Shown in pieces: positions 3,032 to 39,337 of a stretch of 46,663 nt of DNA (the first letter of the stretch is position 1; the number at the start of each line of letters is the position of its first letter). The DNA comes from a virus. The position numbers and the translations under genes are program-made. The notes under the pieces are model-generated. The model was not told the DNA's origin. It did not search any database and worked only from the letters and a program-made list of their open reading frames with translations. The stretch is taken from IMG/VR virus record IMGVR_UViG_3300045988_088633, one strand, 5' to 3'.

Positions 3032-3362
3032 TTATTCACGGTATCCATCGTAGATTTCCAACTCCCAATTTCCATCGTCATCAACCATGAGAATTGTCTG
3101 CCCGTTATAGACATCTTTGTTTGTTTTCTTTACCATCTCAACGAAATATTGAAAATCTTCGAGTTTGCCAATCGTGACGTAAAGCGTGCTTTCATCTCGA
3201 AATCGCCACTTTCCAGACTTGTAATCAAAAAAACTCTCTCTTTTTGCCGTTTGTAACACGTTCAAGTTTGAAACGAGGGTCTTTGAGAAACGGATATTTC
3301 TCAATTATTTTGTCCCCATTGTTGTCAAACAATGAAGTGGTTGCTTCTACTTTAACGCGCAT
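3032..3362 (-). CDS. Hypothetical protein apparently split by a +1 frame break at a T7 run (ORF A 3225..3362, ORF B 3032..3304)
   Basis: ATG 3362 has a strong RBS (TAGGAG) and opens a 45-codon ORF ending ...UUU UUU UGA. The downstream 90-aa ORF is in the +1 frame and has only a TTG start directly after a stop codon. Confidence 0.45.
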
Positions 3363-3379
3363 AAGACAACTCCTAACTT

Positions 3380-4117
3380 TTACTTAACGACTTCTCCCTC
3401 AACGACTGTCTCGGAAAAACTTTCAATCTTGTTGCAGATTTCATCGTAATCTCGATTCAGAATATCCTTTGCCGTCTTGTAACCAGCATCAGCGATAATC
3501 TTTGCGGCGACCTCGGAATCAACGCTGTTCTGTGTGCAGAGCGTGTACAGGCGCTTGACCTGTTTTGCGGAAATCTTATCGTCAGGTCTAGTCACAGACT
3601 GCGCAACCTTGGCAAAGTCAGTAGTTTCGATTGCAGAATCTTCCAAATCTGCCGTGAACGCGCCAGAAAGCTGCGCAAGCATTAGGCAAGCATCAACCAT
3701 CGAGCGCTTCTTTGCCTTTTTAATGACACTGTTCGCCAAATCTGCCTTAGGAGCGCGACCACAAGAACCCTCGTTCGAGTTTGCACTTCCATAGCCATCA
3801 GTTATATGCTGACCACATTTGTACAACTCACACTTAAAGCGATAGAAGAACAGCGGCATTGTGCCATCCGCATTTCCGAACTCCTCAACCGCTTTTTCAA
3901 GGACAAACTTGCTCTCAACGCCGTATGCCATCAAGATACGCTCGGCTCCGCTCTTGTAGAGTGACGGACGCTGTGCCTTGGGGATTCGCCCAAAATCAAT
4001 GTTGCGGCGAAGCAAAAGGTTTGTGTTACCAATCGTGACCCTGTAATTCTCGTGGTCGGTTCGCACAACTGCGCCAACAGGCGTGTAACTCTGAATTGCG
4101 TTAGTTTCTTCGCTCAT
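3380..4117 (-). CDS. Putative single-strand annealing protein (Erf/Rad52-superfamily-like recombinase)
   Basis: The motif block GYGSAN...KKAKKRSMVDACLMLAQLSGAFTADLED is typical of phage annealing proteins. The gene lies between ssb and a PD-(D/E)XK exonuclease. ATG 4117 follows AAAGGAG. Confidence 0.5.
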   Translation of the reverse strand: MSEETNAIQSYTPVGAVVRTDHENYRVTIGNTNLLLRRNIDFGRIPKAQRPSLYKSGAERILMAYGVESKFVLEKAVEEFGNADGTMPLFFYRFKCELYKCGQHITDGYGSANSNEGSCGRAPKADLANSVIKKAKKRSMVDACLMLAQLSGAFTADLEDSAIETTDFAKVAQSVTRPDDKISAKQVKRLYTLCTQNSVDSEVAAKIIADAGYKTAKDILNRDYDEICNKIESFSETVVEGEVVK

Positions 4118-4843: not shown

Positions 4844-5500
4844 TCACTTGACTGCATACCGAACTCCTTTCATCGCTTTTATTGCGCGATAAATTTTCAA
4901 GCAGCTTTGAAACAAAATGTCACCAACCGATTCATCGCACTTGTACAATCTGTATTTACCATTGCGCATAAGTTGCAACCCGTACAAATTCAGACCTTTT
5001 TCCAAAATTGCATCCCATTTTTCTGGCGGGTATTCTTTATAGAGCAACGACCTATAGGCCGTAAGCTGTGCAGAAATGCTAGGCATGTCAACCTTGTACG
5101 ACGTTTTAATGTCAAGAATGGCATACTCGCCGTCAATCAAACCAAACCTGTCAAGCGTTCCAGCGTAGCCCATGTAACACGCATTGCTTCCCATGGCATG
5201 TTCAATGAGCGTCCATTGTGGTTTGTAGTCGCTGCAGAACTGCGCATAGGCTTCCAGATACGGCGCGTATTCAGCCGGGAAATCGTCTGGAATCTCCCCG
5301 GAGTAATCATACATTACTGTTGCTTCATGCACCGCAGAGCCGCGCTCTCGCGCCATCAGAGCCATATTAGGGTCAGCATTGTTCGCCTTGTCAACTGCAA
5401 GATAACGGATGATGTGCGTAACGCTCGGTAGCTCTACGCCATCTAGCGTGTAAGTGTGAGTTGCTTCATCAAACTGAACTTTGTTTGTATTTCTACTCAT
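4844..5500 (-). CDS. PD-(D/E)XK family exonuclease (RecB/Cas4-like fold)
   Basis: Motifs THTYTLDG..LPSVTHI, GSAVHE and D...AILDIKT (D..ExK-type). RBS AAGGTGA. Confidence 0.65.
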   Translation of the reverse strand: MSRNTNKVQFDEATHTYTLDGVELPSVTHIIRYLAVDKANNADPNMALMARERGSAVHEATVMYDYSGEIPDDFPAEYAPYLEAYAQFCSDYKPQWTLIEHAMGSNACYMGYAGTLDRFGLIDGEYAILDIKTSYKVDMPSISAQLTAYRSLLYKEYPPEKWDAILEKGLNLYGLQLMRNGKYRLYKCDESVGDILFQSCLKIYRAIKAMKGVRYAVK

Positions 5501-5726: not shown

Positions 5727-6045
5727 TTTGTTTAGCCTTTCTTTTCTCTAATTCAGAGTTGATTCTCTCTCTAAACTTTAGCCAACCCGGTTTGTCAATT
5801 CGTTCATCGCCAAGCTGGTTGATTCGTTCCGCAAAGTTGATGTCATCAACCATAACTTGTAGGTCATTGTCATTGAGATACTTGAAGTTCTTGCAAACGA
5901 AGTCTTGTACAAGGCTTGGAATATATGTCTGTCTGCCGAAGCAGTAACGAACAGCACACACGCAAATCGTTCCAAAATCCTCATCAATCCGCTTTGGTTT
6001 CGGCTTGCTTGCGCCAGGAATCGGGCATCCTATTGTTGTGCTCAT
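5719..6045 (-). CDS. Hypothetical protein (AVRYCFGRQTY motif)
   Basis: Trimmed to ATG 6045, which forms an ATGA overlap with the upstream stop. Confidence 0.5.
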   Translation of the reverse strand: MSTTIGCPIPGASKPKPKRIDEDFGTICVCAVRYCFGRQTYIPSLVQDFVCKNFKYLNDNDLQVMVDDINFAERINQLGDERIDKPGWLKFRERINSELEKRKAKQNA

Positions 6046-6629
6046 TCTGATACCTCCTCTACAAATGCCATTCTCTGGCGCAGATTGAGCGATTTTGGAT
6101 TGAGAATACAAGCCGGTGCTACGGCATTACCGTAGTACGCACAGAAGTTGTTCAACTGCCCCGTAGTGTACACGACGCGAACGTTGTTAGCGTTGCCCGC
6201 GTCGGAATCCTTGTCACCGCAACACCAAGGCGTGATAGTCCACACAAAACTGTCGTAGTGCGGGATGTAGTCACGGTACTTTCGGTACTCATCACAAGAT
6301 AGAATAAAAACATTGTCATGAACAGTGCCATAAGCTCTGTCGCCGTTGTCGGCAACAAGGTCAACGGTATGTGACAGCAGACTTTCTTTATCGAAAAAAC
6401 TGTTCGCCATATCAGATAGAATCCCCCGCACATTACTGGTGCGGTAGTTATTCCAGTTGCCTTTTTCATCGACAAATTTACCACTTGGGCAGAACTTGAC
6501 ATCTTTTGCCCATGGCTTTGCCATAATGGCCAACAGGCCGCCGTCAGGGTGGTTCGGGTCAAGGCAGACCCACTCGAAGCCTTTGAACATGAAGTGTTCG
6601 CCGGGTCGTAGGGTTGTTATGTCAGTCAT
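6042..6629 (-). CDS. DUF6273-like protein
   Basis: The pattern FKGFEWVCLD...GLLAIM...NVFILSCDEYRKY...WTITPW...NAVAPACILN matches the architecture I remember for DUF6273. RBS GGAGG. Confidence 0.5.
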   Translation of the reverse strand: MTDITTLRPGEHFMFKGFEWVCLDPNHPDGGLLAIMAKPWAKDVKFCPSGKFVDEKGNWNNYRTSNVRGILSDMANSFFDKESLLSHTVDLVADNGDRAYGTVHDNVFILSCDEYRKYRDYIPHYDSFVWTITPWCCGDKDSDAGNANNVRVVYTTGQLNNFCAYYGNAVAPACILNPKSLNLRQRMAFVEEVSE

Positions 6630-7484: not shown

Positions 7485-7513
7485 TTGCAAGCGCAATCCT
7501 GCTGTGCTATAAT
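7485..7513 (+). promoter_or_regulatory. Rightward promoter (TTGCAA-17-TATAAT), divergent from the leftward one
   Basis: -35 box 7485..7490, -10 box 7508..7513, spacer 17 bp. Confidence 0.75.
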
Positions 7514-30191: not shown

Positions 30192-30443
30192 GTGGAAATT
30201 AAGCCACTCACGGCCAAAGAATTGACCTTCAAAGGCTACGGCTCAAGCACCACAATTAGCAAGTATGTTGCCATGGGTATGCCAAGGCATGGCGTTAGAG
30301 GTAACTACTGGTTTATTGAGGAAGAAGTAAAACAATGGATTCTTTACCGTGGCGAAAAGCTGTTTATAGCTTGTCCGCATTGCGGAAAACTGATTCAAGT
30401 TCCTAAAGAGGTGGTTGCAAATGCAAAGACAACAACAGATTAA
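30192..30443 (+). CDS. HTH (excisionase/MerR-like) plus Zn-ribbon DNA-binding protein; positional small-terminase candidate
   Basis: LTAKELTFKGYGSSTTISKYVAMGMP....WFIEEEVKQW plus CPHCG. The GTG start follows AAAGGGG. It overlaps terL. Confidence 0.45.
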   Translation: MEIKPLTAKELTFKGYGSSTTISKYVAMGMPRHGVRGNYWFIEEEVKQWILYRGEKLFIACPHCGKLIQVPKEVVANAKTTTD

Positions 30444-32124
30444 CGACCATAAGCGAATTGCTTCGTTCTCCAAGTTGCTGAAAGAAAACCCGAAGGACAT
30501 TCGTCTTGCGGAAGCATTGCTTTCTGCCTGTGCAAACGCAACCGCAAAAGATGACGGCAGTTATGAAACAAAAACAGTAGAAGCGGAGTACGCCTTTAAG
30601 AAAGGCATGGAAGTTTACAACGCCTGTTTGTTCAACGTGGCAAATGCGCGAGACATTGACGACAAACGTAAGTGGCTTGTCCTAACTAAGAGTTCGCTTC
30701 TGTTTTTGGCTCATAAATATTTTGACAGTTTCTTGCTCTACTTGGAGTTTGACCGCAGACCAGACAAGCGCTTTTACGCCCCAAGAAAGAACCAGCTAAA
30801 AAAGATTGTTGACGGGTATCAAGACATAGCAGATGGAAAACTAGACCTTTTGACGGTTTCCATGCCGAAAAGATGCGGAAAATCGCAACTTGGTTCGATT
30901 TTGTTCTCAATTTGGCGAGCTGGAATGTACCCCGATAAGTCAATTCTGTTGACAGGACAAGGCGACCAGCTTGTAAAATCGTTCTATGACGGTTGTCTTG
31001 AAATCATGCAGGACAGGGCAACTTATAATTATTGGGATGTTTTCCCGGGAGCAACCATTGCGAACACTAACGCGGAGTTAAAGTCAATCGACTTGAACTC
31101 AAAAAAGCGTTTTCCAACAATAACTTGCCGCTCCATCGACGGAAAATTAACGGGCGCCACGGAAGCAAGCAACTTTTTGTCGATTGATGACCCCGTGTCT
31201 GGATTTGAGGAAGCGAACAACTACGCTCGCCTTGATTTGCTGTGGAACAAAATCCGTGGTGATGTACTCGGCAGACGAAAAGAGGGCGTTCCGATTATTA
31301 TTATCGGCACTCGGTATTCCATTCATGACCCTATCGGCCATTTGCAAGAAATGGGCAAACAGCTTGGTTGGCGCGTAAAGATTGTCGAAGTGCCAGCGCT
31401 TGACCCCGTTACAGACGAATCAAACTTCCGTTACAAATACGGTCTTGGTTTCAGCACTGAATATTACAGAAACGAGCGAAAACTAACACTAGAAAGCCAG
31501 TGGGCATCTGAATTTCAGCAGCAGCCCATCGAAACCCGTGGCGCTATCTTCCAAAAAGACACGCTTCAATACTATATGGAGCTTCCGCAAGGTATTGAAC
31601 CTGATGCGATTTTGTCCGTCACAGATACGGCTCTTGGCGGCGGCGACTTTACATCAATGCCGGTAGGATATATCTACGGAGAAGATGTTTATATAGAAGA
31701 TGTTGTTTATAACTCTGCGTTACCAACAGTAGTTGTCCCAGAGATTGCGCAGAAATGCAAAAAGCACAAAATATCAATCAATCAGGTAGAATCAAACAAC
31801 CAAGGTTTGATGATTGCTGAACATATTGAAAAGGAACTGCAAGTAATCGGAGCACACACTTCAATCAGAACGAAGCTAACAACAGCAAACAAACAGACAA
31901 AAATCCTTACGCAGTCAGACTACATTAAGAAACACTTTTTCTTTAAGCATGAGAGTATGTACGAAGCTGGAAGCGAATACGGCGCTGCGATGCGTGAAAT
32001 GTGGTCATATTCACAGCTTGCAAAGAATAACCATGATGATTTCTGCGACAGTTGCAGTCAGCTGTCAATTTTCGTGCAAACAATAGTTGGATGCAAGGTT
32101 ACTGCTTTCAAAAGACCTTTCTAA
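30421..32124 (+). CDS. terL: Terminase large subunit
   Basis: Walker A MPKRCGKSQ, IIIGTRYSIHDP and a nuclease-domain DTALGGGDFTS. ATG 30421 lies 6 nt after AAGAGGTGG. Confidence 0.85.
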   Translation: MQRQQQINDHKRIASFSKLLKENPKDIRLAEALLSACANATAKDDGSYETKTVEAEYAFKKGMEVYNACLFNVANARDIDDKRKWLVLTKSSLLFLAHKYFDSFLLYLEFDRRPDKRFYAPRKNQLKKIVDGYQDIADGKLDLLTVSMPKRCGKSQLGSILFSIWRAGMYPDKSILLTGQGDQLVKSFYDGCLEIMQDRATYNYWDVFPGATIANTNAELKSIDLNSKKRFPTITCRSIDGKLTGATEASNFLSIDDPVSGFEEANNYARLDLLWNKIRGDVLGRRKEGVPIIIIGTRYSIHDPIGHLQEMGKQLGWRVKIVEVPALDPVTDESNFRYKYGLGFSTEYYRNERKLTLESQWASEFQQQPIETRGAIFQKDTLQYYMELPQGIEPDAILSVTDTALGGGDFTSMPVGYIYGEDVYIEDVVYNSALPTVVVPEIAQKCKKHKISINQVESNNQGLMIAEHIEKELQVIGAHTSIRTKLTTANKQTKILTQSDYIKKHFFFKHESMYEAGSEYGAAMREMWSYSQLAKNNHDDFCDSCSQLSIFVQTIVGCKVTAFKRPF

Positions 32125-35059: not shown

Positions 35060-35613
35060 TGCCTTACGCTGACACAGAAAAGAGACTGGCGTACCACAGG
35101 AAGTACAACAGAGAGACGCGGGAATGGGCCAAGAAAAACGGAATTTGCGTTGTTTGTTGCAAACAAAAGGCCGATGAAGGTCATGCCACTTGCCTACAAT
35201 GCCGTATGGCCGACAGAGAACGGTCTAAAAAGCCGAGAAATCTAGCAGCAGATAAAGTTGCCGAGCAAAAAAGCAAACGCGCACAGCGCCGCTTAGACCT
35301 CATAGCGCAAGGGATATGCGTGCAATGCGGGAAGCGGAAAACTGGTGAGTATCAGATATGCGACGTTTGTAGAGCAAAAATCAACGCAAGACGCAAGAAA
35401 AAGTATAACGAATCAAAAGAAATTCCAATCGTTCTTTACGGAGAACAAGGAATGTGCGCAAGATGCGGGAAGCCTACTTACGCTAACTCAAAGTTGTGCA
35501 AGTTCCACTATGATGTTGCTGTACAGAACCTGGGCAAAGCAGAGAACCGCGGTTCTGAAACATACAGAAAAACGAATCAACTATTTTTTAAACGAAAAGG
35601 AGCAGACAAATGA
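35056..35613 (+). CDS. Triple zinc-ribbon protein, basic
   Basis: Three CxxC-(9-11)-CxxC units (CVVCC..CLQC, CVQCG..CDVC, CARCG..CKFH). ATGA overlap with the upstream gene. Confidence 0.55.
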   Translation: MMPYADTEKRLAYHRKYNRETREWAKKNGICVVCCKQKADEGHATCLQCRMADRERSKKPRNLAADKVAEQKSKRAQRRLDLIAQGICVQCGKRKTGEYQICDVCRAKINARRKKKYNESKEIPIVLYGEQGMCARCGKPTYANSKLCKFHYDVAVQNLGKAENRGSETYRKTNQLFFKRKGADK

Positions 35614-36029
35614 AAGTTTTTCTTGATGTTGGCGCATATATGCCGACATACGCTCACGATGCAGACGCGGGAATGGATTTGCGCACACCTGTGGCGTTTA
35701 TTGTCCCGGCGCATGGCGATTACACAGTTGACACTGGTGTTCATGTGCAGATTCCTGTCGGGAATGTTGGCTTCATCAAGGCAAAGAGCGGCTTGAACAT
35801 CAATGCTGGTCTGACTGCAACTGGTGTTGTGGATGCGCTCTATAGCGGCAGCATCCGTGTTAAGCTGTACAATCACAGCGATGAGGATTATGTGTTCAGC
35901 CGTGGCGACAAAATCACGCAGATGGTTATTCTGCCGATTGCTAAGTTTGACTTAGAGTTAATCGACACACAGGAGTGCTTTGAAAAGTCAGAGCGTTGCA
36001 GCAATGGTTTCGGTTCAAGTGGGAGATAA
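35610..36029 (+). CDS. dut: dUTP diphosphatase
   Basis: Motifs AGMDL, KSG, GVVDALYSGSI, GDKITQM and NGFGSSG. Confidence 0.9.
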   Translation: MKVFLDVGAYMPTYAHDADAGMDLRTPVAFIVPAHGDYTVDTGVHVQIPVGNVGFIKAKSGLNINAGLTATGVVDALYSGSIRVKLYNHSDEDYVFSRGDKITQMVILPIAKFDLELIDTQECFEKSERCSNGFGSSGR

Positions 36030-36031
36030 AA

Positions 36032-36292
36032 ATGAACACAAGCGTAGAATACAGGCTGATGCAAGCATCCGTTGATGTTGAGCACATCATTGACGAAGAG
36101 CGAAAGGAACTCGTCTTTAGCGCCATGGCCAAATATAACGAAAAGGCAAAAATGGACAAGGAAACAGCAGAGCAGGAGTTTCTTGATGAGGTTCTGCACA
36201 TCGAGCGCGAATCAATGGAGCAGAAAGAAAGGTTCATGAATATGTTCAATAAAGCTGTGTTTCATAAAGCTGTGAAGCAAGAGAAAAACTGA
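36032..36292 (+). CDS. Hypothetical protein (86 aa)
   Basis: ATG 36032 follows GGGAGA. Confidence 0.5.
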   Translation: MNTSVEYRLMQASVDVEHIIDEERKELVFSAMAKYNEKAKMDKETAEQEFLDEVLHIERESMEQKERFMNMFNKAVFHKAVKQEKN

Positions 36293-36311
36293 AAGAAATG
36301 GAGAATTAAAG

Positions 36312-36749
36312 ATGAAAGAACTTACGATTACAGCTAAAGACTTTGCAGAGCTTTTTTCTGATGCAGACAAAATGCTCACTTTGCGTGAGGTTGACAACGG
36401 GAGAGAGACCGGACGAAAGATGGTTTGCAGGGTAGTTTCCGCGTCAAAGTCTATTGGCGGCAAGGAAGTCAAAAAGGCAGACAGCGGTCTGCTGATTCGT
36501 CCTAGCTATTATAACCCGGATTCGGCTTACGAGCCGCGCAAGGTCATCAAGGCGTGGGGTCTTGACTGGAATCTCGGCACTGCTCTGAAATACATCGAGC
36601 GCCGTGGGCACAAGCAGGGCGAAACAACGCTGAAAGACCTCAAGAAAGCACTCACTTACATTCACTTCGCAGTTGAGGACGAAGAAGAACGCATTGCGTC
36701 AGAAAAAGAGCGCATTGTGTCAGAAAGGGGTATAAGTGATGCTTGTTGA
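36312..36749 (+). CDS. DUF3310-domain protein
   Basis: WGLDWNLGTALKYIERRGHKQG...DLKKALTYIHFA is the DUF3310 signature. Confidence 0.6.
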   Translation: MKELTITAKDFAELFSDADKMLTLREVDNGRETGRKMVCRVVSASKSIGGKEVKKADSGLLIRPSYYNPDSAYEPRKVIKAWGLDWNLGTALKYIERRGHKQGETTLKDLKKALTYIHFAVEDEEERIASEKERIVSERGISDAC

Positions 36750-37458
36750 ACTTATCGCTTATTCCACGCCAGCAAACGAGAGATACAAGTACAATCCGAT
36801 GAAAGTTGTTGAGCAGTGTGCAAGCGTGTGCTATGGCAGCGAGCCGGATTTTCACGACTACCGCATTGCCAAGGGATGCGCAAAAACAGGGCACATGAGT
36901 GTGTTTGAGCACGCATACTTCACATTCCGTGTGGCAGAAATCAGCCGTGCTTGCCTTGCGCAACTTACAAGGCATCGGCATTTCAGCTTTTCCGTGCGTA
37001 GCCAACGCTATTGCGATGAAAGCACAATCGGGTGCATTATTCCGCCAACGGTGACGGAAGAACAGTATGACATCCTCATGCAATCTTACAGTGATTCAAT
37101 CGACAAGTACGCATTTTTGACTTCGTCTGGCATGGCTAAGGAAGATGCACGGATGGTTCTTCCTAACGCCGCAGAGACGGAATTGTATATGTCAATGAAC
37201 GCAAGAGCACTGATTGAAGCAAGCCATTTGCGGCTGTGCAACAGAGCACAAGATGAAATCAGAACGATGTTCGGCGTGATGAAAGGAGAGGTCAAACTGG
37301 TTTCTCCCGAAATCGCAGATATGATGGTTCCTAAGTGCGAGGTAAATCCGAGTTATCCGTTCTGCACGGAGCGGAAAGGCTGTGGAAAGCACCCGCCGTT
37401 AAGCGAGGTTTACGGAAAGTGCAAGTGCAATGGAAAGTGCGAGGTGAAAAGCAAATGA
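36739..37458 (+). CDS. thyX: FAD-dependent thymidylate synthase ThyX
   Basis: The ThyX motif is present in QLTRHRHFSFSVRSQRY, with SVFEH upstream. Confidence 0.9.
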   Translation: MLVELIAYSTPANERYKYNPMKVVEQCASVCYGSEPDFHDYRIAKGCAKTGHMSVFEHAYFTFRVAEISRACLAQLTRHRHFSFSVRSQRYCDESTIGCIIPPTVTEEQYDILMQSYSDSIDKYAFLTSSGMAKEDARMVLPNAAETELYMSMNARALIEASHLRLCNRAQDEIRTMFGVMKGEVKLVSPEIADMMVPKCEVNPSYPFCTERKGCGKHPPLSEVYGKCKCNGKCEVKSK

Positions 37459-37790
37459 CACCGATGACGCAGAATGAGAAAATGGCAGAATCGCATTGTG
37501 AGTTCACAATGGCCAAGTATGGTTGCGATGAGTGCGCCAAGCATTGTGCTCTAGCAGACATCTGCAAGGCTTGTGACGGTGATTTCAGCCGCAACGTGGG
37601 TGAAGATACAATCGCGGCAGACAAGGCCGTACAAGCGCTGGAAAGGCAGGAAGCGGACAGCATTGCAAATTCCGTAATGGTGGAGTATTACAAGAAACAG
37701 CTTGAATCCGCAAATGAGGAAATCGCAACACTGAAAGCGATGAACAAGATGCTCACCGAAAGCATCAAGAATCTTACGGCAAAGGGGTGA
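37455..37790 (+). CDS. Hypothetical Cys-rich / coiled-coil protein
   Basis: ATGA overlap with the thyX stop. Confidence 0.5.
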   Translation: MTPMTQNEKMAESHCEFTMAKYGCDECAKHCALADICKACDGDFSRNVGEDTIAADKAVQALERQEADSIANSVMVEYYKKQLESANEEIATLKAMNKMLTESIKNLTAKG

Positions 37791-37794
37791 GTTC

Positions 37795-38001
37795 ATGATT
37801 TTCAGAATCCTGTGGTTTGTGTTCATGTACTTGGTTGCCGGAACTGTGATTGCCGGGGTTTGCGTTGCGATTCTCGGTGATGATGCGGACAAATACGAAA
37901 ACAAGGTTGTTACGCTTGCAATTCTGATTTGGCCTGTTATGCTTGTGATACTTGTCTTTGGTGTGCTGACAGGGATTGCAATCAGAATCGGCAAAAAATA
38001 A
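37795..38001 (+). CDS. Small membrane protein (2 TM)
   Basis: 68 aa, hydrophobic. Confidence 0.5.
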   Translation: MIFRILWFVFMYLVAGTVIAGVCVAILGDDADKYENKVVTLAILIWPVMLVILVFGVLTGIAIRIGKK

Positions 38002-38023
38002 TCAGTTTTGCAACAAAAGTCCA

Positions 38024-38052
38024 TTGCAATACAACATGGAGTGTGCTATAAT
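38024..38052 (+). promoter_or_regulatory. Promoter (TTGCAA-17-TATAAT) driving the tRNA/ncRNA locus
   Basis: -35 box 38024..38029, -10 box 38047..38052, exact 17-bp spacer. Confidence 0.75.
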
Positions 38053-38238
38053 AAAGACAATCCAACAGGGAAGCCATTTGAACGATTGCTTCATCTGGGG
38101 ACGAACTGCTGTGTGAGTTCCAAGTCTTAAAGCACAGATTTCCTGCTGTTGGGAATACGCTAAAGCCATTAGAGCAAGGCACAACAGATTTTGCCTGTTA
38201 CGGTTCAATGATTACTTGAATACCAACAGGCATTATAT

Positions 38239-38314
38239 TGCGGGTTAGCCAAGAGGTAAAGGCATCGCACTTTGACTGCGACATTCGTTGGTTCGAATCC
38301 AGCACCCGCAACCA
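38239..38314 (+). tRNA. tRNA-Gln: tRNA-Gln (anticodon UUG), CCA encoded
   Basis: I folded a 76-nt cloverleaf by hand. The acceptor TGCGGGT/ACCCGCA is fully Watson-Crick paired with U1-A72. The D arm is GCC-AAGAGGTAAA-GGC. The anticodon arm is TCGCA-CTTTGAC-TGCGA. The T arm is GTTGG-TTCGAAT-CCAGC. The discriminator is A, followed by CCA. Confidence 0.92.
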
Positions 38315-38800
38315 CCGTATAGTATGGGCTGTGTCCATAGTATACCTCCTTTTGGCGTGATTGGGTTTGCGATTTTTCCCCGATTACCGACCCGAGATGC
38401 TTATTCAGCCGATGGGTTTCAAACAGCAGTCGGCTATTATGGTTTCTTAGTTTAAGCAAAGCAGTTGTCCATGGCAACAGATGATGGTGCAAATCCATCA
38501 GGAACCGCCACGCGCCTACCAACAGTGCGTGCCATGTGGCGGATTCTGTAATACAGGGTGAGCCTTGCCGTGAAAGTCGGCAATACCAACGGTTCCGCTA
38601 AGCTCCATTGTGATTGTGGCGAAGATTAAAGCGTGTGCAGGTAAGGGGACACCGCCGTTGAGTTATCCCGCACAGCTAACTTTATGCCGGTGGAGCAAAT
38701 AGCGTAGATGTCGGCATAATGGACAAGAGCGGCTCGCGCCAAAGCAACTGCGAGTAGTCAGGAGCAAGACCTGCGTGTGGGCTTAATTTGAATTTAGAGG
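38315..38800 (+). ncRNA. Candidate large structured non-coding RNA (possibly contiguous with the leader 38059..38238)
   Basis: There is no plus-strand ORF with an RBS. There are many GC-rich helices, including a multi-helix junction closed by 38501-38507/38590-38596. Confidence 0.5.
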
Positions 38801-38808
38801 TGCAGATA

Positions 38809-39150
38809 GTGAATACGAAAACGGTCAATATTCTCGGCACTGATTACAGCGTGATTCTCGCAAATGAGCAGGAAGAACCAAGGTTATGCAACATGGATGG
38901 ATTTTGCGATGATTCTGCAAAAGAAATCTATGTGGACGACATGGGCAAGGCTGCTAAATCTCCGGACAGCAAGAAAGACCTTAAAGCGTACAGAAACAAA
39001 GTTATGCGGCACGAACTCACGCACGCAATGCTTTCTGAAAGCGGTTTACAGTCAGAGTCCGCTTGGGCTATGAATGAAGAAATTGTTGACTGGATTGCCA
39101 TTCAAGGCCCAAAGCTTATGGAAGTTTGGAGCACCGCTAAATGTCTTTAA
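38809..39150 (+). CDS. Putative zinc metallopeptidase-like protein (HExxH)
   Basis: RHELTHAML motif. The GTG start lies 6 nt after AGAGGTG. Confidence 0.45.
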   Translation: MNTKTVNILGTDYSVILANEQEEPRLCNMDGFCDDSAKEIYVDDMGKAAKSPDSKKDLKAYRNKVMRHELTHAMLSESGLQSESAWAMNEEIVDWIAIQGPKLMEVWSTAKCL

Positions 39151-39296
39151 TCATCAACTGCATCCAAGCAATAGCAGTCGTAATTATTATGATTCTTTGC
39201 TTCATTGCGGGCTATGAAGCTGGCAAAAACGATGCCGCTACGCACAACGAATACCGTGAATATCCTATCATTATGGAGCATAATCACGGCGAATAA
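39141..39296 (+). CDS. 51-aa membrane peptide (below the ORF-track cutoff)
   Basis: My own translation gives MSLIINCIQAIAVVIIMILCFIAGYEAGKNDAATHNEYREYPIIMEHNHGE. It overlaps the upstream stop and is followed by a strong terminator. Confidence 0.45.
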   Translation: MSLIINCIQAIAVVIIMILCFIAGYEAGKNDAATHNEYREYPIIMEHNHGE

Positions 39297-39337
39297 ACTT
39301 AGACATTCACTTGGTTTTCCATCATATCCTTTCTCGG

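Follow-up and report, generated by a model that had tools for sequence, protein, structure and literature searches.

The question raised by this locus is whether a promoter-driven tract of about 0.75 kb, free of open reading frames (ORFs), encodes one large structured RNA or several small ones. The tract (~38053-38808) lies in the IMG/VR virus record IMGVR_UViG_3300045988_088633, whose 46,663 nucleotides were analysed as a whole and are referred to below as the window. A preliminary description of this DNA had interpreted the tract as a candidate large ornate RNA of the ROOL or GOLLD kind, or of a new class, with a tRNA embedded among nested helices. As judged from comparison with related stretches, the tract is instead a promoter-driven gut-phage operon of small RNAs, organized as a mosaic of independently varying units. 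Its comparatively supported unit is a predicted cloverleaf of about 115 nt, designated here the four-way-junction tRNA-like element (TLE), and not an ornate RNA of 480-750 nt (Table 1).

About 40 related stretches were retrieved from IMG/VR and from human-gut metagenomes by means of downstream protein and DNA seeds (individual loci are cited below by L-numbers). The closest large terminases are those of human faecal phages and of a Clostridium innocuum phage, and the carriers of the TLE are human-gut phages with probable Bacillota hosts. Among isolated phages, a 20-kb Megablast gave no match and the 851-bp locus matched through tRNA-Gln only. Also, the 20-mer seed AGTCAGGAGCAAGACCTGCG recovered from the GTDB genomes two chance matches with dissimilar flanks, and no host prophage was found. 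Module by module comparison of the relatives revealed that segments of the tract have been gained, lost and swapped independently of each other. The block at 38664-38787, which contains the TLE, was found in every relative, even where both of its flanks are unrelated to those of the window.

The four-way junction of the TLE was obtained from RNAalifold and from single-sequence folds, and consists of a terminal stem (P1), a short stem that carries a long distal hairpin (P2 and P2a), and two further hairpins (P3 and P4). The window copy belongs to one of two subfamilies, named A and B. Two of the hairpins drawn in the preliminary description, 38683-38689/38712-38718 and 38733-38737/38750-38754, correspond to P2a and P3 of this element, and compensatory changes speak for both.

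In the first 22 copies collected, 97.8% of cells pair, as compared with 27-46% in slid controls, and a single pair with a double change made for thin covariation. In L013 and L032 the covariance model R1, built from the first copies, recovered a second copy that has diverged; it is located upstream of tRNA-Thr, and in it P1 pairs have changed from C-G to A-U and U-A and a P3 pair from U-A to G-C. A looser seed yielded 65 further copies from several gut viromes, and a seed spanning P1 to P3 (CCCGCACAGC..CCRAAGCAAC) gave chance matches only in IMG/VR. Over 64 distinct copies, 98.4% of cells pair (22-48% in slid controls), 6 of the 19 pairs carry changes on both sides, and the covariation score was reached by none of 500 shuffles. 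The G-U pairs and the C-to-U changes opposite G fit an RNA of the plus strand only. One copy (L026) is a chimera that joins a subfamily B 5' part to a subfamily A 3' part, and is mismatched exactly at the covarying pairs. For the distal P2 arm, no fewer than seven unrelated versions (20-59 nt) were seen, and almost all are predicted to form hairpins set on the same GCY/RGC base.

Several traits of the element recall tRNA. The terminal stem measures 7 bp in 64/64 copies and is preceded by U at position -1 in 63 of them. The sequence ACCA directly follows P1 in 41/64 copies, namely in every subfamily-B copy but one and in the subfamily-A copy L032. The 7-nt loop of P4, (U/A)GCAAGA, is present in all copies and can be likened to UGCAAAU, the T loop of a tRNA-Met-like gene described below. 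The P4 stem of L088 has 5 bp without a mismatch and lies directly against P1, in the way a T stem abuts an acceptor stem, and in most subfamily-B copies P4 is formed by 3 bp, a mismatch and 1 bp. Also, the family is located in arrays together with real tRNAs and other reduced tRNA-like sequences. At the level of predicted structure, the TLE thus looks tRNA-like: its terminal stem has 7 bp, one hairpin recalls a T arm, and U stands at -1.

Three additional features proposed for the element were discarded. An extra CCG/CGG helix within the P3 loop gained no support from the substitutions of subfamily A. The string TATAT upstream of the TLE was considered as a promoter of its own; it has no -35 box at workable spacing and is absent from the variant that the window carries. 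An 8-nt match between 38719-38726 and 38465-38472, in the anticodon arm of the tRNA-Met-like gene, does not occur in the other P2 variants.

The two subfamilies differ in their surroundings. Subfamily A, the kind found in the window, closes the tRNA operon, and in 19 of its 23 copies is followed by an identical 26-nt linker that bears the ribosome-binding site (RBS) of the next ORF. This ORF is the HExxH gene in the window, and the following small ORF where that cassette is missing. Subfamily B is situated about 124 nt 3' of a 129-aa ORF and 0.5-0.8 kb 5' of terS, with up to three tRNAs or tRNA-like sequences downstream. The 129-aa ORF is not called a late regulator, because it matched no Pfam family and only a PHROG of unassigned function. 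In 10 of the 12 subfamily-B loci examined, D12-methyl RNA (RF02950, 82-94 bits) occurs 0.3-0.7 kb downstream of the TLE and before terS; its covariance model found no match in the window, and a literature search on D12-methyl turned up no paper. The TLE family itself is absent from Rfam 15 and may correspond to an unnamed listing among the 8,495 IMG/VR candidates of PMC10690425.

Other RNA-like sequences were observed in these and related arrays. At the loci that carry it, about 300 nt of GC-rich sequence, conserved and non-coding, lie 5' of D12-methyl RNA and match group-II D1-D4 weakly. A group II intron downstream of the TLE (L013, L026 and L039) was considered and dismissed, the D1-D4 matches being weak (about 26 bits) and domain V giving no match. 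The terS leader arrays contain a conserved 58-nt tRNA-like sequence (39.5-40.9 bits with the Rfam tRNA model) that has acceptor, D and T arms and no anticodon arm, and the downstream sequence AAGGCTGGGT... is common to it and to some TLE copies. Matches of 84 nt to the tRNA model (L072 7437-7520, L105 6459-6542 and L060 4392-4475) are called by ARAGORN as tRNA-His(ATG), with an unusual anticodon; they carry an insertion after the anticodon arm and the leader '...GAGCCTTATAT' that is also found before several tRNA-like units. A type II hammerhead ribozyme (56.9 bits) occurs at L088 11612-11677 (-), and L032 holds two sub-threshold RAGATH-5 matches at 6037-6086 and 5154-5206 (-), with 37-43 bits against a gathering score of 50.

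The operon that the TLE closes in the window begins at 38024-38052 (+) with a sigma-70-type promoter, TTGCAA-17-TATAAT with a TG-extended -10 (10/12 consensus matches), which the preliminary description had recognized. Distant relatives have a promoter at the equivalent position (TTGAAA-17-TAAGAT with TG), and a second window promoter at 7485-7513 (+) repeats the TTGCAA-17-TATAAT arrangement and has the string TGTGCTATAATAAAG in common with the first. The promoter at 38024-38052 is taken as real because its position is kept in distant relatives and because the window contains a second one like it; the two sequences suggest a reused phage promoter type. The tract was also rightly described as free of ORFs: the ORF list and Pfam revealed no credible ORF 5' of the GTG at 38809, only short ones that overlap the tRNAs and a 105-aa antisense ORF for which a Pfam search found no match. 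As no plus-strand terminator was predicted across 37700-39300, read-through from the RNA array into the protein genes is expected.

The leader ends in a hairpin (38193-38199/38225-38231) in which three pairs show double compensatory changes in an RNAalifold consensus of eight relatives, in agreement with the helix proposed there earlier; a second proposed leader helix, 38062-38068/38146-38152, is not part of that consensus. The tRNA-Gln(UUG) gene that follows had been correctly identified and is recovered by both ARAGORN and Rfam. In the spacer between the two tRNA genes, hairpin 1 (38317-38327/38335-38345, then CUCCUUUU) reads GUUUACUU/AAGUAAAC in L004, where compensatory changes keep the pairing. 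The same holds for hairpin 2 (38407-38412/38430-38435), already drawn in the preliminary description, which is AGCCGA/UCGGCU here and AGUCCG/CGGACU in L004. This spacer is 96-100% identical in close relatives, a conservation equal to or above that of the tRNAs and higher than that of the neighbouring protein genes. A further hairpin, at 38505-38542, overlaps with its 5' strand the CCA end of the tRNA-Met-like gene in the window. In L004 it reads CCCCAGC/GCUGGG, with three double compensatory changes as read from the alignments, and in L104 its module is found 5' of tRNA-Trp. These compensated leader and spacer hairpins may serve to process or to stabilize a polycistronic tRNA precursor.

Two observations concern a short segment close to spacer hairpin 1. 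A 46-aa antisense ORF over tRNA-Gln opens at 38338-38355 (-) with a near-perfect RBS and start (AAAAGGAGGTATACTATG); in L004 it is only 3 codons long, and therefore is probably not a gene. The plus strand of the same positions reads ACCUCCUUUU immediately behind a hairpin and resembles the 3' end of 16S rRNA.

Between the conserved spacer and the mosaic one lies a non-canonical tRNA-Met(CAU)-like gene that had been overlooked. Its score in cmscan (40.8 bits) exceeds the RF00005 gathering score of 29, and ARAGORN calls tRNA-Met(CAT) at 38441-38510 with -ps90 only, not at default settings. The anticodon loop is UCCAUGG, with C33 replacing U33, the D loop is AAGCA without GG, the T loop is UGCAAAU, and an A-A mismatch sits atop the anticodon stem, so that the canonical invariants (U33, G18G19, T-Psi-C loop and 5-bp anticodon stem) are not found. 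The gene is nonetheless 94-98.5% identical in distant relatives whose flanking genes have diverged far more. Two helical segments of the presumed ornate RNA belong to it: the hairpin 38482-38487/38495-38500 is its T arm, and 38501-38507 is the 3' strand of its acceptor stem.

The region that follows this gene differs between the window and its relatives. Wherever the contig of a relative covers the interval, its tract exceeds that of the window by about 0.33-0.45 kb, and tRNA-Ser(UGA) and tRNA-Thr(UGU) come after the tRNA-Met-like gene. In L001, AACCGCCAC occurs at 3276 and again at 3695, with these two tRNAs in between. The flanks of L001 are 99-100% identical to the window, which has one copy of AACCGCCAC where L001 has two, and the window is therefore a 419-bp deletion derivative. 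Its genome recently lost 419 bp, together with tRNA-Ser(UGA) and tRNA-Thr(UGU), by recombination between the two AACCGCCAC repeats, an event seen in this window alone among the relatives. Other changes affect the same interval elsewhere, including a 115-nt deletion directly 3' of the tRNA-Thr CCA, deletions of the L003 type and in L010, and a fusion of two T arms in L019. The spacer preceding the TLE exists in three unrelated versions among the relatives. In the version of the window (modA), the hairpin 38565-38570/38578-38583 shows no covariation because it is invariant wherever it is present. The tRNA-Ser(UGA) genes of the relatives (L001 3412-3498, L002 3384-3468 and L003 3488-3572) combine 8 bp in the acceptor stem, 4 bp in the T stem and 6 bp in the D stem with a long variable arm, an architecture that is Sec-like or 'allo-tRNA'-like; they score 36-41 bits with the Rfam tRNA-Sec model, under its gathering score of 47, and are called by ARAGORN only at -ps90.

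These comparisons bear directly on the proposal of one large ornate RNA. The complementary segments on which it relied are present in the DNA, a promoter drives the tract, which lacks ORFs and abounds in hairpins, and its 756 nt fold modestly better than shuffled sequences (minimum free energy z = -2.0, 1/20 shuffles). However, cmscan of the whole window at Rfam 15 gathering thresholds gave two matches, both tRNA, and at E<=10 the interval 37900-38900 gave tRNA and two chance-level matches only; ROOL, GOLLD, raiA, HEARO, OLE, tmRNA, RNase P, group I/II introns and other large RNAs were not among them. The helix thought to close a multi-helix junction (38501-38507/38590-38596, GGAACCG/CGGTTCC) has arms about 420 nt further apart in the relatives, or lacks one of them, and is a perfect 7 bp only because the window-specific deletion placed the spacer directly behind the tRNA-like gene. 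The junction itself consists of that gene end and an unrelated spacer, brought together across the deletion scar. The suggested pseudoknot 38602-38607/38691-38696 fares no better, with a mismatch in L003, a different loop in L002 and, at many loci, a loop without a partner. The TACCAAC motif does recur at 38221, 38517 and 38584 but is not conserved in the relatives. In sum, the segments vary independently, a 419-bp indel lies inside the tract, and junction, pseudoknot and TACCAAC are not conserved; a tRNA-like gene accounts for two of the helices, and the terminal motif is also found by itself in surroundings unrelated to these. On such grounds one large ornate RNA is excluded for practical purposes and retains hardly any probability. 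What stands of the preliminary description is a non-coding and structured tract of about 0.75 kb, driven by a strong promoter, that includes a tRNA and belongs in part to an RNA family outside Rfam.

Table 1. Positions of the predicted features of the tract in the window and, in the last two rows, of two RNAs at related loci.
Feature	Position	Strand	Remarks
Leader, 186 nt	38053-38238	+	terminal hairpin 38193-38199/38225-38231 just 5' of tRNA-Gln
tRNA-Gln(UUG), encoded CCA	38239-38314	+	ARAGORN; Rfam RF00005, 64.3 bits (gathering score 29)
Spacer between the two tRNA genes, 126 nt	38315-38440	+	two conserved hairpins
tRNA-Met(CAU)-like gene, encoded CCA, discriminator G	38441-38510	+	Rfam tRNA, 40.8 bits over 38441-38507
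Deletion scar AACCGCCAC, single copy	38503-38511	+	419-bp deletion between direct repeats
Hairpin CCGCCAC/GUGGCGG	38505-38542 (arms 38505-38511/38536-38542)	+	inverted repeat; conserved loop GCCUACYRACAGUGCG
Swappable spacer modA	38512-38664	+	replaced by two unrelated modules, or partially deleted, in relatives
TLE	38664-38787 (element 38667-38782)	+	covariance model R1, 147.7 bits; sole copy in the window
TLE P1	38667-38673/38775-38781	+	7 bp
TLE P2 base	38675-38677/38728-38730	+	3 bp, carries the long distal hairpin
TLE P2a, variable arm	38682-38690/38711-38719	+	distal hairpin
TLE P3	38733-38737/38750-38754	+	12-nt loop 38738-38749
TLE P4, CAGG/CCUG	38759-38762/38770-38773	+	7-nt loop AGCAAGA
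TLE nucleotide at discriminator position	C38782	+	directly after P1
RBS AGAGGTG	38796-38802	+	serves the GTG ORF at 38809
Gene for 113-aa HExxH protein, GTG start	38809-39150	+	phrog_1233 at 3e-24; weak peptidase Pfam match
D12-methyl RNA	L026 7904-7967, L039 582-645, L013 9574-9637, L072 7825-7888		same leader as TLE
58-nt tRNA-like sequence without anticodon arm	L075 2286-2343, L104 3387-3444, L111 4483-4540, L064 1010-1067, L032 9612-9669		

The account favoured here, to which we assign a probability of about 0.6, combines this operon organization with tRNA-style processing. The promoter at 38024-38052 would transcribe, in order, the leader, tRNA-Gln(UUG), the structured spacer, the tRNA-Met(CAU)-like RNA, the mosaic spacer and the TLE, and transcription would continue past the TLE into the protein genes. 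Host RNase P would cut 5' of each acceptor-like stem, at the U(-1)/+1 junctions, and the 3' sides would be trimmed by RNase Z or by exonucleases, so that a stable TLE RNA of about 115 nt would be set free. The cut could double as a tRNA-style 'punctuation' that leaves the downstream mRNA with a 26-nt leader bearing the RBS.

A number of observations weigh against this account. The participation of RNase P and RNase Z is presumed from the architecture of the units, and in several respects that of the TLE departs from tRNA. With the tRNA covariance model (E<=10), neither the TLE of the window nor the minimal 78-nt member of the family (L091) gave a match. The P3 loop is 12-14 nt long and therefore is no anticodon loop. 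The window TLE is without CCA, C38782 being followed by UUA, and the remaining copies of subfamily A likewise show C and then UUA or AAA; also, the fifth T-stem pair of the window copy is a U-C mismatch (4 bp and a mismatch). Because it has no tRNA-model score, no anticodon, a variable hairpin at the position of the D arm and, in the window copy, no ACCA, the TLE is not considered a tRNA. Covariation events are few in independent terms because the sequences fall into two subfamilies, the alignment of the 64 copies (A5) was fitted to the model, and the search seeds partly fixed the conserved P3 and P4 sequences. Finally, a terminator-like hairpin and U run lies directly upstream of most TLE copies, so that it is not obvious how transcription reaches the element there.

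The position of the TLE, always upstream of protein genes and on their sense strand, could also mean that it acts in cis, as a riboswitch-like leader or a protein-binding operator of the downstream genes (HExxH, or the terS late operon). The 26 nt to the start codon, fixed in most of subfamily A, and the leader that subfamily B shares with D12-methyl RNA are in keeping with this, and the conservation of junction and loop nucleotides around a variable peripheral stem is aptamer-like. However, neither an alternative pairing of the RBS nor an expression platform is seen, the boundary of the module coincides with the exact end of P1, and the downstream sequence is wholly different between contexts. 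Tandem copies flank a tRNA in L013 and L032, tRNAs often intervene between the TLE and the next gene, and the encoded ACCA and the U at -1 point to an excised RNA, which makes a cis-acting leader distinctly unlikely. It is far less probable still that the non-tRNA parts of the tract, the TLE included, are functionless debris of tRNA genes and recombination linkers that would survive only thanks to a recombination hot spot. The pairing of 98% of cells over 64 distinct copies, with compensatory changes, argues against such decay, as do the spacer hairpins maintained by compensatory changes and the conservation of spacer and tRNA-like gene above that of neighbouring protein genes. Nevertheless, rearrangement at short repeats and between paralogues is frequent, truncated or armless tRNA-like sequences populate related arrays, and one L032 copy is without the 3' strand of P1.

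Excision of the TLE by tRNA-style processing would be compatible with a role in trans, in which the released RNA mimics a tRNA without decoding. Host proteins that handle or attack tRNA, such as defence nucleases, modification enzymes or synthetases, could encounter it as a decoy or substrate; alternatively, it could be a cofactor of late functions or DNA packaging. The P2 arm would tune its specificity. An acceptor-like stem, a T-like arm and ACCA are found together without an anticodon loop, the element is present in at least 80 gut-phage contigs, its subfamily B stands consistently just upstream of terS, and the P2 arm is hypervariable. Such a mimic nevertheless appears rather unlikely, as charging and binding would be conjectural, no partner protein co-varies with the TLE in the loci examined, the window copy has no CCA, and 8-10-nt complements of its loops occur within the window at chance frequency only, with no significant antisense target. 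As a tentative and doubtful suggestion, the TLE could stand at the head of a new class of tRNA mimics that phages encode and that do not decode. Such an RNA would be a cloverleaf whose acceptor and T minihelix are of tRNA type, with an ACCA end in the terS-linked subfamily, a conserved 12-14-nt loop where tRNA has its anticodon and a hypervariable arm where tRNA has its D arm; tRNA enzymes would excise it, and it would act in trans. As such it would possibly serve as a decoy or substrate for tRNA-directed defence or handling proteins, or as a cofactor of late expression or packaging together with D12-methyl RNA.

The gene downstream of the operon, which starts 26 nt after the TLE, behaves as a cassette: in many relatives it is missing and the TLE abuts the next small ORF, with RBS and first codons unchanged. 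Directly upstream of the RNA operon, positions 35610-37458 (+) hold a nucleotide-metabolism block composed of dUTPase, a nucleotide kinase and ThyX. These early-type genes share their strand with the gene for the large terminase (30415-32124), an unusual layout.

Most of this locus is thus ordinary, being a cluster of phage tRNA genes with hairpins that may act in processing and a deletion of recent date, and its analysis removes a false candidate for a large ornate RNA. The TLE is a well-supported RNA family outside Rfam, abundant in human-gut phage contigs, that resembles a tRNA minus decoding plus a hypervariable arm. In its sister lineage it always heads the terS leader beside D12-methyl RNA, which Rfam lists merely as an sRNA without assigned function. 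The element is a testable handle on why phages carry non-decoding tRNA-like RNAs and on whether tRNA-style punctuation organises phage transcripts. Also, the locus shows short repeats and paralogous RNA modules at work in the rearrangement of phage tRNA arrays.

ROOL and GOLLD RNAs are associated with phages and prophages and often occur near tRNA genes. The tract differs from them in giving no covariance-model match and in that its conserved unit is about 115 nt and not 500-800 nt long, the remainder being mosaic. D12-methyl RNA (RF02950) is likewise a motif of human-gut phages and shares the terS leader with subfamily-B copies of the TLE; it differs in consisting of two hairpins in 64 nt and in being absent from the window. 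The tRNA-like domains of YrlA and tmRNA are non-decoding, mimic the acceptor/T-arm part of tRNA and are acted on by tRNA enzymes. The RNA ends of YrlA are at the opposite side of its tRNA-like domain, and tmRNA is much larger and carries an ORF; the TLE, for its part, has no Rfam match.

With canonical tRNA (RF00005) the TLE has in common the 7-bp terminal stem preceded by U at -1, the four-helix cloverleaf, a 4-nt segment at the place of the variable loop, a hairpin with a 7-nt loop beside the 3' strand of that stem and, in subfamily B, ACCA. It departs from tRNA in matching no tRNA model, in having a variable hairpin of 20-59 nt at the D-arm position and a conserved loop of 12-14 nt in place of an anticodon, in its length of 78-121 nt, and in the missing CCA of the window copy. 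The tRNA region of phage T4 includes the species 1 and 2 RNAs (rnaC and rnaD), small stable RNAs encoded beside tRNAs. The locus resembles that cluster as a promoter-driven polycistronic array that carries, besides tRNAs, presumably stable RNAs of another kind, about 100-140 nt long, which the tRNA-processing machinery would release. Compared by description with rnaC and rnaD, the TLE is set apart by a conserved cloverleaf and a hypervariable arm of its own.

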